From: Octopus vulgaris
Taxonomy: Eukaryota
Reading direction: 5' to 3'
Length of the DNA: 64,000 bases
NCBI GenBank assembly: GCA_951406725.2
Contig: OX597818.1
Coordinates: 115,568,001-115,632,000, forward strand
Below, piece by piece: positions 11,251 to 61,276 of the stretch. A model generated the notes under the pieces. That model saw only the letters and a list, made by a program, of their open reading frames with translations. It was not told where the DNA came from and ran no database searches. Position 1 is the stretch's first letter, and each line of letters opens with the position of its first letter. The translations under genes and the position numbers were made by a program.

Positions 11251-11528
11251 TAAGTCCCGAACTCTTAACCTACCCATCTTCTTAAATGAAATGCATACAT
11301 CAACACATAACTCACATGACTGCATCACCCACATACAACCCAAAGAAATCAACAAACATTTTGTATACATAAAGAAAAAAAAAGGAGAACAAAAAAAAAA
11401 TGTTGTTCCACATCAACGAAAAACTTTCTGTATGAACAATTTACTGAACATTTCACAAGCGAACTTTTTCGATGAACATTTCTTTCATTTTTTTGCTCCA
11501 GGCCATATGCACAATGTACGGAACTTAC

Positions 11529-11726
11529 CTTGCAAAACAGAGGTAACATGTTGTAGAGTTTATCCTCCTGTTCTTTCTGAGTAACATTTCCTTGTGGCTG
11601 GCGGAACTCCGCAAATAGTTTCCTCAGATGCATCAAACCAAGTGCATTATCCTGCGAGCTGATTGCCACAGAGGCCGACGGCTCTGGTGTTGCCCGAGGG
11701 CTAACTAGCTTCCGCATAAAACTCAT
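11529..11726 (-). CDS. WDFY3: First coding exon of WD repeat and FYVE domain-containing protein 3 (Alfy / blue cheese; BEACH autophagy scaffold)
   Basis: 66 aa MSFMRKLVSP...SQDNALGLMHLRKLFAEFRQPQGNVTQKEQEDKLYNMLPLFCK matches the WDFY3 N-terminus as I recall it (human: QDNALGLMHLRRLFTELCHPPRHMTQKEQEEKLYMMLPVFNR). It ends in a phase-0 donor AAG|GTAAGT (GT at 11528-11527). No further coding exon was recognised in 1-11528. Confidence 0.93.
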
Positions 11727-13298: not shown

Positions 13299-13565
13299 AG
13301 AGTGCGGGCTACTAACCCCAAGATTCCAAGTTCAATTCCAGGCAGTGACCTAAATAATAATAATAATAATAACATAAAAAAATATCTTAGGAATCAGAAC
13401 CTATGTTCGAAATTTCCCCCAGACACCTGATGAAGGCTGGAGGGTATATCAGCCGAAATGTTGTGTTAACAATAAACAAGGTGAGGACATATATCCGTCA
13501 AATGTAAACAATGTAAAGAATGTAAATAATGTACATAATTCCTCGTCTCTTAAATATAGAACTGT
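13299..13565 (+). mobile_element. tRNA-head + hammerhead retroposon (family H), copy 1
   Basis: Partial tRNA-like head (GGGCTACTAACCC...AGTTCAATTCC...TGACC), (AAT)n linker, hammerhead at 13422-13467 and the shared 3' end ...TCTCTTAAATATAGAACTGT. Confidence 0.8.
13422..13467 (+). ncRNA. Minimal type I hammerhead ribozyme motif
   Basis: GACAC-CUGAUGA-A-GGCUG(GAGGGUAUAU)CAGCC-GAAA-UG-UU-GUGUU. Stem I GACAC/GUGUU and stem II GGCUG/CAGCC are intact; there is a C>U (CpG decay) in the stem III palindrome. Confidence 0.7.
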
Positions 13566-16435: not shown

Positions 16436-16806
16436 TACAGTGATACCTCGCAGTATGAGTTTAATTCGTTCCATGACCGAACTCGTCTTACGATTTACTC
16501 GTTTTACGAATCAATTTTCCCCATTGAAATTAACTAAATTATAATTAATCCGTTCCAGCACCCAAAAAAACACTCAAAATAATTTTCCATGGGTTTCAAT
16601 ACAGAAAAGGTGTAGTTACGTGTAAAATGGCATTTATAAAAAAAGCAAATGCAAAGGAAATATGTAAACTGGTTTTATTAACTGAATAACATTAAAGGCG
16701 AGATGATTTGTGTGCTTGTACTGCGGATTTTCCGCTCATACTTCAAGACAAAAATTCGCACAAGCCTTGGCTCAAAAAGCAAACTGCCTGTACAATGGGT
16801 CACTCA
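16436..16806. mobile_element. Tigger/pogo-like MITE, right end missing where family H begins
   Basis: TA|CAGTGATACCTCG left end and an internal TTTTCCCCATTGAAATTAA motif typical of Tigger-like elements. The right terminal inverted repeat (TIR) is not seen. Confidence 0.55.
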
Positions 16807-16807
16807 T

Positions 16808-17223
16808 GTACATTATCTACATTTGACAGATATTTGTCCTCATCTTGTTTGTTGTTAACACAATGTTTCAGCTGATGTACCCTCCAGCCTTCATCAGGTG
16901 TCTTGGAGAAATTTCAAACATGGGTTCTCATTCCTAAGATATTTTTCAATGTTGTTGTTATTATTATTATTAATATCCAGGTCACTGCCTGGAATCGAAC
17001 TCAGAATCTTGGGGTTAGTAGCCTGAACTCTTAACCACTATGCCATATGACCGTGGGCAATTATGGAGTGAATTTTAGGGCTTACAAATAATAATAATAA
17101 TAACAACAACATCGAAAAATACCTTAGGAATGAGAACCCATGTTCAAAATTTCCCCAAGACACCTGATGAAGGCTGGAGGGTACATCAGCCAAATATCCG
17201 TCAAATGTAGATAATGTAAATAA
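16808..17223. mobile_element. Family H inverted pair (minus arm 16808-~17086 with full tRNA head; plus arm ~17087-17223)
   Basis: Minus arm has a hammerhead at 16857-16902 and a tRNA-like head at 16980-17052 (GGTCA...TGACC acceptor stem, A-box TGGCATAGTGG, B-box GAGTTCGATTCC). Plus arm keeps CTGATGA and stem II but lacks the GAAAC half. Confidence 0.8.
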
Positions 17224-19186: not shown

Positions 19187-21910
19187 GGCTATTTATAATT
19201 TTTAAATATTTGCTCCCAACAACACAGCCAATAAACGAAGGCTATTGTAGATTCATCAGCTAATAAAGTGGTATTCATTATATTCTATCTCTATCTCTTA
19301 TTTACTTGTAAAACCTCCCTCGCTGCACCTTCATTTACATAATAGATGCATTCAAAAAGAACCAACCAGACAATCTAAAATTCACCATTACAGTATCTCA
19401 GATCTCTGAGATGTTATTTGAGAAGTTTACTGCACCAAATTACACATAAAAAATGTCATCGTAATACAAGCAGAATCATTGACAGTCAAGTGTAGGAAAT
19501 ATAAAGCAGAGAGATTAAAAGTTTACGCAAACCAATAAATCAACGACCAAATGTTAAAGAGCAACTAAACGTTGTTAATAATGATTTCACTGTTTCACAC
19601 ACGAAGACGCACATTACTATGAAGTGAAGAAGACCATGTGGCACATAAGAGCCTCATGTTAGGACTTTTATTGTGGTGTAGTAAGGAAATTCACCTGACA
19701 TGCACCACCGTCGCAACGGTCAACAGTATGGAACAGCATCTGGTTGTCAAGATAATCCGACAAAGCAGTATGGTGAGAAATATCACCAAATGTGTCAATA
19801 GACACAGCAGATGAGCCCAATAATGGAACCTATACATCAGTCACAGGTGAACTGCAATCCGTGGGTATGTATATATGTATGTATGTATTATGTATGTGTG
19901 TGTGTGTGTGTGTATATGTTTGTGTGTCTGTGTTTGTCCCCCCCCCACCATCACTTGACAACCGATGCTGCTGTGGTTACGTCCCCATAACTTAGCAATT
20001 CGGCAAAGAGGCCGATAGAATAAGTACTGGGCTTACAAAGAATAAGTCCTGGGGTTGATTTGTACGACTAAAGGCAGTGCTCCAGCATGGCTGCAGTGAA
20101 ATGACTGAAACAAGTAAAAGGATAAAAAGGCTATCACTAATACCAACGCAGCAAACTAACTCCCAACGGATACAGTGTTATTTAGAAGCGAAGGAAACAA
20201 CCAACAGCCTACAAACAGATAACAACCTATGGACGAGCATTACTTCAAACGAAACATAACATTATATTCAAAAATCATAAACGTGATTTCCTTACCAATC
20301 CCAAATGCTGACTAATAAATATTTCCAGCAAAAAGTAGAATCATTAAAAAAAATATTGTAGATTCTATCAATTTGGTTGTAGCATTAAACAGGTCGCTAC
20401 TGTTCAGTTCTGGAATAATAGTATATCTATCCTACCATCGTGTACTTCAGTTATGTAGATAATGAGCGGGGGGTTTTGGGGGGGGGGGGATTTTTTTCTA
20501 ATTTATGTTGTGTGACATAGCAGTTTTCTGGTTTTATTCTGATTAGTGATTCTAGCATTAATTAATATGCAAGCAAGAAAGTCTTTGCTATTTTTATATA
20601 TTTCTTTACTGCCCACAAGGGGCTAAACATAGAGGGAACAAACAAGGACAGACAAACGGATTAAGTCGATTACATCGACCACAGTGCGAAACCGGTACTT
20701 TATTTATCGACCCCGAAAGGATGAAAGGCAAAGTCGACTTCGGCGGAATTTGAACTCAGAACATAATGGCAGACGAAATACCTATTTCTTTACTACCCAC
20801 AAGGGGCTACACAGAGAGAGGACAAACAAGGATAGACAAACGGATTAAGTGGATTATATCGACCCCAGTGCGTAACTGGTACTTTATTTATTTACCCCGA
20901 AAGGATGAAAGGCAAATTCGACCTCGGCAGAATTTGAACTCAGAACGTAACGACAGACGAAATAGCTAACATTTCTGCCAGCTCGCCACTGTCTTTGCTA
21001 TTTTATAATGGTTCCATTTGGAGCTCAGCATGTCAGCCAAATATTGTTTGATGTAGCTCAAGGATCCAATGATACAGACAAAGTTTGTGAATTGACAAGA
21101 ATGTATATTCTAAATTTGCTGCAGAAGAGATTCTGTTCTATAGAGTTTGGTTGATCATGCCATGGAATTTATTACAAAAGGTGTTTATCAACAGATTAAT
21201 GGAATCAGAATTAAAGACTACAGTTAATGCAAATCAAAGTATAGCTAATTTATTAGATATAACTCTAGATTTAAATATTACCCTATAAATCCAACAAGAA
21301 ATTTTAGTACGTTAATATAAATTCCAGTCAAATTCTGAGAGTCATAAAAGACTTCATGACAACAATAAGTGCATATCCCCTGATAAGGGACCCTATTATC
21401 GTGCTGCACATTATTAGAAAAGCAGTGGCTTTAAAGATATAATATATTGCATACAACATAAATATTCATAGATGTTAAAATAGGAAGGGAAATATTACGT
21501 GGTACAATCTTTCCTACAGTTTAAATATACATTTTAATGTCAGCAGAATTTTCCCATAAATAAGCATTTTACTATACACCATAGGTATCATGAAGTCTTC
21601 AATAAAAATGTTAAAGGGAACTACAGTTGCACCAAAAACTTAGCTTCTGTTCCCTGTATAAACAAATGAAACACATTCTTTATGAACACATTAAATTCTT
21701 CCCCTGTATGTAATTGTAACAACCATATCTGTCCCCTGTGTCTTGAGCTACAGTCTTTTGCAAATACCAATAAAACACTAAGCTATAGAGAGTTCACTAA
21801 AAATCCTTTTAAAAATGGATTCTCACAAAAATATTTTAAATTCAAAGACTCTTTACTGTTTTCACTATCCAAATATACAAGAGTTTAAAGGATGATAATA
21901 TTAATAATTA

Positions 21911-25437: not shown

Positions 25438-25750
25438 GTTCTATATTTAAGAGATGAGGAATTAGGTACATTATTTACATTATTTATATTTGAAGGACAC
25501 TTGTCCCCATCTTGTTCGTTGCCAACACATTTCAGCTGATACACCCTCCAGCCCTCATCAGGTGTCCCGGAGAAATCTCAAACCTGGCCTCCCACTCCTA
25601 AGGCACGTTTTTCAATGCTTTTATTATTATTATTATTATTATTCAGATCACTGCCCGGAATCAAACTCAGAATCTTAGGTTTAACCATGGGCATATGGCA
25701 TAGTGGTTAAGAGCACGGGCTACTAACCCCAAGATTCCGAGCCCAATTCC
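25438..25750. mobile_element. Family H inverted pair, T>C (A>G on minus strand) hypermutated
   Basis: Minus arm 25438-~25683 has a degenerate hammerhead at 25524-25566. A plus-strand tRNA head follows at ~25689-25750. Confidence 0.8.
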
Positions 25751-25757
25751 ATATAGG

Positions 25758-25822
25758 AACTGTGAGTGGATTTGGTAGACAGAAACTGAAAGAAGCCCGT
25801 CGTGTATGTATGTATGTATATG

Positions 25823-60472: not shown

Positions 60473-60797
60473 ACAGTTCTATATTTAAGAGATGAGGAAT
60501 TATTTACATTATTTACATTCGATGGATATTTGTCCTCACCTTGTTTGTTGTTAACACAACGTTTCGGCTGATATACCCTCCAGCCTTCATCAGGTGTCTT
60601 GGGGAAGTTTCGAACCTGGGTTCTCATTCATAAGGTAATTTTAATAATAATAATAATTACTTCAAAAAATACCCTAGGAATGAGAACCCAGGTTGGAAAT
60701 TTCCCCAAGACACCTGTTGAAGGCTGGAGGGTAAATCGGCTGAAATGTTGTGTTAACAACAAGATGAGGACAAAATATCCATCAAATGTAAATAATG
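60473..60797. mobile_element. Family H inverted pair without tRNA heads
   Basis: Minus arm 60473-~60642 and plus arm ~60660-60797 meet at (AAT)n. The plus-arm core is mutated to CTGTTGA. Confidence 0.85.
60553..60598 (-). ncRNA. Minimal type I hammerhead ribozyme, intact core
   Basis: GACAC-CUGAUGA-A-GGCUG(GAGGGUAUAU)CAGCC-GAAA-CG-UU-GUGUU. All core nucleotides are present, with palindromic AACGUU in place of stem III. Confidence 0.8.
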
Positions 60798-61276
60798 AAT
60801 ATATTTTTCATTCTATATTTTTTCAACTTTTCATTAATCACATTCTTACAGATTGTCCTTTGGAATTAAAAACCATGGCATTAAGAATTCAGATCTACTA
60901 AGATTTTTGCAATCTTGGCACCTTATCTCCATTATGCCATAGACATTAAAAAGTCAGGACCTCCATTAATTGAGTTCCTTCACATAACGCAGAGGTCAAA
61001 AGGCAGACATTTCCATTATCTACTTTCATGGTGCTATCAGTCCTAAGTGCATTTTCACACATACACACAATCTCTCCATGGCCCTCCCTCATCCTCACAC
61101 ACACATATGAATGCAGCAGCAACAAGCACTTCACTGATGTAGAGTAATTAAAAGAATTAAACTGAAAAAGAATAACAAAATACAAACTATAACATAGATA
61201 ACAAAAATTACTTTCAGTGATGTGTTTCATGTCACATTAACAAAAATATGTTATTTTATAGGGGGGGGGGTCAGCT

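Follow-up and report, generated by a model that had tools for sequence, protein, structure and literature searches.

A strand-specific A-to-G cluster in one copy of a hairpin-forming octopus repeat: a possible footprint of ADAR editing in germline DNA

The window analyzed here is a stretch of 64,000 nucleotides from Octopus vulgaris (contig OX597818.1, positions 115,568,001 to 115,632,000 of the forward strand). A WDFY3-like gene has its first coding exon in the window, on the minus strand, and its exons share between 48 and 92% identity with a snail protein. The gene runs on the minus strand to 115.40 Mb, with a 69-kb intron after the first coding exon, and T/A skew suggests that the 5' untranslated region reaches about 100 kb further. 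Because low CpG and a T/A skew of unchanged sign extend across the window and past it to about 115.69 Mb, a copy of repeat family H located at 25.5 kb probably lies in a 5' intron of the WDFY3-like transcript, in sense orientation. A CpG-rich patch at 20.5 kb was considered as the host promoter, but the continuation of the skew to about 115.69 Mb argues against this. The patch consists of CpG-rich unique DNA at 20100-20450 and 20600-20990; a site resembling a splice donor lies near 20290 on the minus strand, and the CpGs of two SINE copies are preserved. It might be an alternative promoter or a non-coding exon. The features that matter for what follows are these:

11526-11726, minus strand: first coding exon of the WDFY3-like gene (tblastn)
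13299-13562, plus strand: H copy in opposite orientation, 12 kb from the 25.5 kb copy and its possible partner in a minus-strand pre-mRNA (predicted pairing)
25438-25751, element sense on the minus strand: the 25.5 kb H copy, with tRNA-like head, (AAT)n, hammerhead body, tail and short inverted head arm (alignments)
25438-25497, minus strand: 3' part of the element, AU-rich and unaltered (0 of 25 T changed), with the tail of about 23 nt
25498-25618, minus strand: A>G cluster, read as T>C on the plus strand (16 sites)
25522-25566, minus strand: minimal type I hammerhead motif in decayed form, with its core at 25555-25561 (sequence compared with the features in PMC4209133)
25622-25642, minus strand: (AAT)n spacer at the head-body boundary (sequence)
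25645-25685, minus strand: main arm of the tRNA-like head, 5'-truncated, with one A>G at 25656
25686-25751, plus strand: inverted head arm, with TT>CC at 25742-3
60476-60803, no strand assigned: unchanged two-arm H copy, an example of a read-through hairpin (-195.5 kcal/mol, z=-23)

Read on the minus strand at 25.5 kb, family H is organized as a tRNA-like head, (AAT)n, a minimal type I hammerhead and a tail. Motifs resembling A and B boxes can be recognized by eye in the head; neither a tRNA nor a hammerhead was called in H by ARAGORN and Rfam. When the 60.5 kb copy was compared by eye with the features described in PMC4209133 for the minimal type I hammerheads of Penelope-like elements, the core, the bulged base after position 9, the G-C closing pair, a palindromic helix III and a short helix I could all be assigned. 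At 25.5 kb the bulged base (25554) is one of the changed sites, and the region of the cleavage site is shortened, as it is in several other H copies. Penelope-like insertions are further described in PMC8557442 as having an inverted, 5'-truncated second copy and a tail of 30-40 nt at one end only. In H, 52 head-to-head arm pairs were found in 93 loci (from the first 100 of 3912 matches); 31 of these pairs have a tail on one arm and none on both, the tail being about 23 nt long as against the published 30-40. As the hammerhead features and the inverted arms with a one-sided tail match the published architecture, H is likely a non-autonomous Penelope-type element, judged by sequence. A minimal type I hammerhead, an inverted 5'-truncated second copy and a tail at one end are common to H and to the Penelope-like elements and animal retrozymes as described in PMC4209133, PMC8557442 and 10.64898/2026.07.22.740005, whereas H differs from these descriptions in lacking an ORF, in its tRNA-like head and in being arranged head-to-head instead of in tandem. 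Two-arm copies are present in the window at 16806-17222 and 60476-60803, and genome-wide the family represents a supply of near-perfect RNA hairpins.

Relative to the column majorities of 29 other copies, the 25.5 kb copy has 18 substitutions in 144 scored columns (25470-25621), and 16 of them are T>C on the plus strand. These 16 are located at 25498, 25500, 25507, 25517, 25522, 25523, 25542, 25554, 25567, 25568, 25577, 25589, 25592, 25595, 25604 and 25618, and one of them hinges on the placement of a 2-nt insertion at 25606-7, although both placements tried still give a count of 16. By the same comparison each of the other 29 copies has between 0 and 4 T>C. Within 25498-25618, C has replaced T at 16 of 48 majority-T sites, whereas none of 22 majority-A sites is now G (Fisher p=0.0014); the strand coherence of A>G on the hammerhead-sense strand that had been reported in the first-pass annotation is thus upheld. 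With the T>C at 25656, 25742 and 25743 outside the main cluster the total rises to about 19, within the earlier estimate of 18-20. The distribution is narrower than the roughly 250 bp first described, since 16 of the 19 changes fall inside 121 bp. Both arms had been said to be affected; the second arm does carry changes, but these are just two adjacent sites, with a probability of about 1.7% of arising by chance. This doublet at 25742-3 is A>G on the minus strand, yet T>C in the inverted arm's own sense, and the inverted head arm and the main head pair as a 23-bp helix in minus-strand RNA (z=-3.8). What had been called a handful of other changes amounts to about 12 substitutions over 25438-25752, indeed mostly G>A in the head.

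The edge of the cluster at 25498 is abrupt. Beyond it none of 20 A has changed (p=2e-4), and when only positions up to column 142 are counted the figure is 0 of 12 (p=0.006). The flanking SINEs have no excess of T>C (3 of 33 T in one and 1 of 53 in the other). The letters of the junction at 25752-25763 are similar to the end of the H tail as well as to a deleted part of the SINE next to it. The cluster ranks top among the 99,522 repeat columns scored over about 500 kb, and the only other near-pure cluster among the top ten is that of a second H copy, L072, the region of which had been fetched because of L072 itself.

The background set comprised the 146 arms of the 93 loci mentioned above, drawn from the first 100 of 3912 core-motif matches, and the rates exclude the selection motif and five polymorphic columns. 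Sense A>G (96 of 6343) and T>C (60 of 3341) do not differ in these ordinary arms (p=0.31). The A>G rate is 1.5% per A, with a maximum of 4 per arm and no strand bias; 66 arms have none, 48 have one, 23 have two, 7 have three and 2 have four, a Poisson-like distribution at the level of chance. At this rate the probability of at least 16 changes in 59 is 7e-16. Variants shared between arms in 50 ordinary pairs (4 A>G versus 0 T>C) are not significant either. Since the counts per arm match chance and both strands are equal, ordinary H copies show no editing signal, and low-level editing of such copies was rejected.

The first-pass annotation regarded a sequencing or consensus artefact as the main alternative and proposed that the Cs be sought in genomic data. 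Four sequencing runs were compared, of which X3 alone has a contig across the cluster; the kind of X3 was guessed as DNA. This contig (109 nt, depth 29) is identical to the window over 25535-25612 and includes nine T>C sites, from 25542 to 25604. X3 represents another sample, since 5 of 400 sites in its flank contig do not agree with the window. As an independent run is identical over 25535-25612, the nine sites are not an assembly error, and an artefact is ruled out there. They are inherited and are present in the germline of a second sample. In X1 and X15 the unique flank is uncovered, and in X7 the flank and the end of the element are covered, with no contig over 25590-25614; such gaps in coverage speak neither for nor against the changes. 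That an artefact of sequencing or assembly, or GC-biased gene conversion, made the Cs is very improbable, even though the cluster contig comes from one run in four of guessed DNA status and takes in nine of the 19 sites. GC-biased conversion was rejected on strand purity, because it would be expected to alter A and T on both strands and A is changed at 0 of 22 sites.

Equally far-fetched is a derivation of the C alleles from a diverged source copy or subfamily. Several of the sites do recur in other copies, namely L072, L073 and L071 (among these sites body columns 17, 23, 58 and 70, and head column 73). The nearest other copies, from 40 scored of 2278 candidates, are only 82-87% identical, however, and of 3912 eligible copies the 25.5 kb copy alone matched four of seven, or three of six, chosen core changes. 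L072 lacks the marks of the 25.5 kb copy that are not A>G and has A>G sites of its own, and in a subfamily changes other than A>G would be expected too. No set of copies was found to have the alleles in common, so that the subfamily reading, which it had been proposed to check, is largely refuted.

A search of the genome (2.8 Gb, 227 contigs) for further strand-biased copies was carried out with screens spanning parts of the H body only. Five sense screens gave 11, 1, 1, 3 and 1 matches, and four antisense screens gave 6, 1, 0 and 1. A screen of this kind had been proposed earlier. Two further copies have A>G on the sense strand, L072 clearly and L073 more weakly; ordinary copies are without an editing signal. 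No clear antisense hypermutated copy was seen in the four screens of parts of the H body. Given this coverage, the number of copies is a lower bound. With the 25.5 kb copy removed, the recurrence of two sense versus no antisense copies is not significant.

L072 (C4:61643939) is single-armed. In its body A>G is found at 10 of 43 A and T>C at none, and in its head A>G is found at 3 of 12; four of the A>G in the body were forced by the search and one is at an ambiguous alignment, and the non-forced A>G (6 of 37) remain significant (p=2e-5). L072 is likely a separate event, because the other marks of the 25.5 kb copy are absent from it. The domain around it is poor in CpG, its skew is that of the plus strand and CAP exons lie on the plus strand as well, so that L072 appears to lie in sense in an intron of the CAP gene. 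L073 (C2:190895733) has two arms with A>G at 6 of 54 and 5 of 53; four of these are shared, as is one G>A. As the arms lie on opposite DNA strands, the shared sense A>G would predate the formation of the arms, barring conversion between them. The p-value of 2e-6 for L073 is overstated, since on one arm the search had forced three of the four sites in common. Further A>G is present in its head. Three other copies were not counted as hypermutated: L069 (4 T>C, three of them forced, and 3 G>A), L071 (4 A>G and 3 T>C) and L074 (the 3 forced sites only). Among the copies with an AA>GG doublet 10 of 11 were ordinary, and among those with a TT>CC doublet all 6 were.

The bases next to the changed A provide a further comparison. 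In the 25.5 kb copy A is changed in 4 of 6 cases after U, 8 of 20 after A, 2 of 9 after C and 2 of 13 after G. This copy alone does not give a significant depletion of 5' G (2 of 13 versus 14 of 35, p=0.17), nor a significant difference between W and S (p=0.065). When pooled with the non-forced sites of L072 and of one L073 arm, the values are G 2 of 31, C 4 of 25, A 12 of 37 and U 6 of 13, and 5' G is depleted (2 of 31 versus 22 of 75, p=0.01); the check on the neighbor preference of ADAR called for earlier is therefore positive for the pooled copies and not for the 25.5 kb copy by itself. No excess of 3' G is seen in the pooled data (5 of 21 versus 19 of 85, p=1.0). At 12 of the 16 changed sites the context is WA (5' A or U). 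The mutation signature of polymerase eta is A>G at WA on either strand, not tied to repeats, and a polymerase with this preference is an alternative that the first-pass annotation did not include and whose context is similar to that of ADAR. According to PMC5625713, 5' G is strongly depleted at edited sites in all species, metazoans including octopus, and octopus is exceptional both in its hyper-editing and in a much reduced preference for 3' G. There, 3' G makes up 20-25% of the edited sites in octopus; in the 25.5 kb copy it is found at 4 of 16.

We favor, with modest confidence, the reading that a hairpin RNA of the element was edited by ADAR and copied into germline DNA at insertion. About half of the H loci have head-to-head arms, and RNA reading through them would form a long hairpin. 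The H monomer has no helix longer than 9 bp, and in its fold pairing is no higher at changed than at unchanged A (0.31 versus 0.34); ADAR would therefore need a long partner strand. Hyper-editing from A to I may have taken place in such a read-through RNA, or in a sense transcript that had paired with antisense H RNA. Reverse transcriptase puts C opposite I, which is established chemistry, and the edited RNA may have been the insertion template of a Penelope-type reverse transcriptase that started at the tail, passed along the body and went on into the inverted head. We propose that the doublet at 25742-3 is altered on the same strand because copying ran on into the inverted head. It cannot stem from an edited sense RNA copied by fold-back, since it is T>C in the sense of its own arm. 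It is compatible with chance, or with an RNA of the minus strand that contains both arms and would have the doublet within the 23-bp helix; such an RNA might arise by read-through of the 25.5 kb locus or of a two-arm source. The product would then have been inherited, as it is at the nine sites in the second sample.

The unchanged 3' end might be the part of the element past the reach of the partner arm in the source RNA. The stop at 25498 demands an unusually short partner arm, however; of 52 shorter arms, the 9 that do not extend beyond column 125 could yield an unedited 3' end, and only these end so early. The edge at 25498 and the 2-nt insertion at 25606-7 are features that the proposed mechanism leaves unexplained. 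In its favor are the purity of the cluster, the confinement of the changes to the element and the pooled depletion of 5' G, which matches the metazoan pattern. The adenosine deaminase domain PF02137 is found at four genomic loci, a match at the level of the domain that could denote ADAR1, ADAR2 or ADAT. Taken together, one type of change on one strand, its 33% density and the pooled context make ADAR hyper-editing fixed in DNA, as first suggested, the best reading, whether the edits entered at insertion or afterwards. The context of the 25.5 kb copy alone, the lack of a 3' G excess and the WA preference common to polymerase eta count against it, as do the fact that L073 also shares a G>A, so that conversion between its arms could explain the sharing, and the host-sense orientation of both the 25.5 kb copy and L072, which the following alternative predicts too.

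An unedited insertion might have been altered in place, if editing took place in the minus-strand pre-mRNA of the host, at the stretches paired with inverted H arms nearby, and was passed into the DNA by RNA-templated repair of the locus, or if ADAR deaminated the DNA strand of an RNA-DNA hybrid. It is kept alive because the sense of the element equals the inferred sense of the host both here (WDFY3-like) and at L072 (CAP-like gene), although two matches out of two have a 25% chance. Both arms are altered on one strand, the head changes lie in or beside the 23-bp helix of the 25.5 kb locus, and a repair tract would account for the sharp edge at 25498; ADAR1 has also been claimed as a DNA mutator (10.1101/2020.02.11.943845). 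Against this, the sense changes common to the two arms of L073 lie on opposite DNA strands, the four antisense screens gave no clear cluster, neighboring repeats of the same transcript are unchanged, and no nearby partner matches the edited span. We regard alteration in place as rather unlikely. If edits on host pre-mRNA had been written back to the same germline locus by RNA-templated repair, the editing of a cephalopod transcript would heritably mutate its own gene; we hold this version to be unlikely, and know of no established case of RNA-templated repair in the germline. A tract of DNA-level errors, made at insertion or repair by a polymerase of the eta type (WA to WG) or by the reverse transcriptase of the element under nucleotide imbalance, would suit the 5' A or U at 12 of 16 sites. 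The doublet at 25742-3 would likewise follow if C had been placed opposite A in both arms of a nascent plus strand, and error-prone polymerases are known to leave clusters coordinated by strand. Here, however, a third of the A are changed with 2 other substitutions in the span, far above the error rates of such polymerases, and C opposite A is an unfavored mispair. The 4 sites with 5' C or G do not fit a WA preference, slippage would favor the 5' G that is depleted here, and neither the confinement to the element nor the sense-only recurrence in all three copies is predicted. Such an error tract thus seems improbable, and the ADAR-edited hairpin RNA remains our preferred source of the cluster.

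Comparable footprints are known from other systems. ADAR-linked A-to-G hypermutation of retroviral DNA was described for RAV-1 (Felder 1994) and avian leukosis virus (Hajjar and Linial 1995), both as cited in PMC8586724. As in the 25.5 kb copy, the changes are clustered A-to-G of the RNA strand that entered DNA by reverse transcription, but the avian cases are exogenous retroviruses, whereas the present one is a non-coding, non-LTR element, probably of Penelope type, in the germline of an invertebrate. The 'DNA editing' by APOBEC3 described in PMC2873906 likewise leaves the footprint of a host deaminase as a one-type, one-strand cluster in single retroelement copies; there cytidine deaminases produce G-to-A on cDNA, whereas here the change is A-to-G and RNA is the likely substrate. 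No sense G-to-A cluster of the APOBEC type was found in the 25.5 kb copy, which has sense A>G instead and one G>A in the body. Hyper-edited octopus repeats and the palindromic Harbinger of frog (PMC5625713; 10.1101/2020.01.19.911685) resemble it in their dense A-to-G, hairpin repeats and depleted 5' G, but are described as edited in RNA only, whereas the changes at 25.5 kb are in genomic DNA. ADAR1 restricts L1 independently of editing according to PMC5974252, the available text of which describes no fixed A-to-G copies. In the main texts covered by an incomplete literature search, no report was found in which Penelope-type or other non-LTR copies carry a fixed ADAR footprint.

If the preferred reading is true, ADAR meets the RNA of mobile elements in the germline, and edited RNA can become inherited DNA in the most heavily edited lineage known. 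Such copies would be datable fossils of past editing, accessible to a simple genome screen in parallel to the APOBEC footprints of vertebrates. The 25.5 kb event is rare and probably functionless, and the effect on the genome is small, with 3 candidate copies as against about 3900 eligible at one motif.

In addition, two G>A-rich stretches were observed (L035:1293, 12 of 25; L168:2920, 12 of 28) amid many other changes, and these are probably old copies or misassigned members of a subfamily. A 1243-aa open frame with a reverse transcriptase domain at L172:1731-5459 (minus strand) is probably a young LINE. The T/A skew flips near 115.69 Mb, which might mark a divergent promoter, and USPL1-like peptidase C98 exons are found on the plus strand at 115.745-115.76 Mb.
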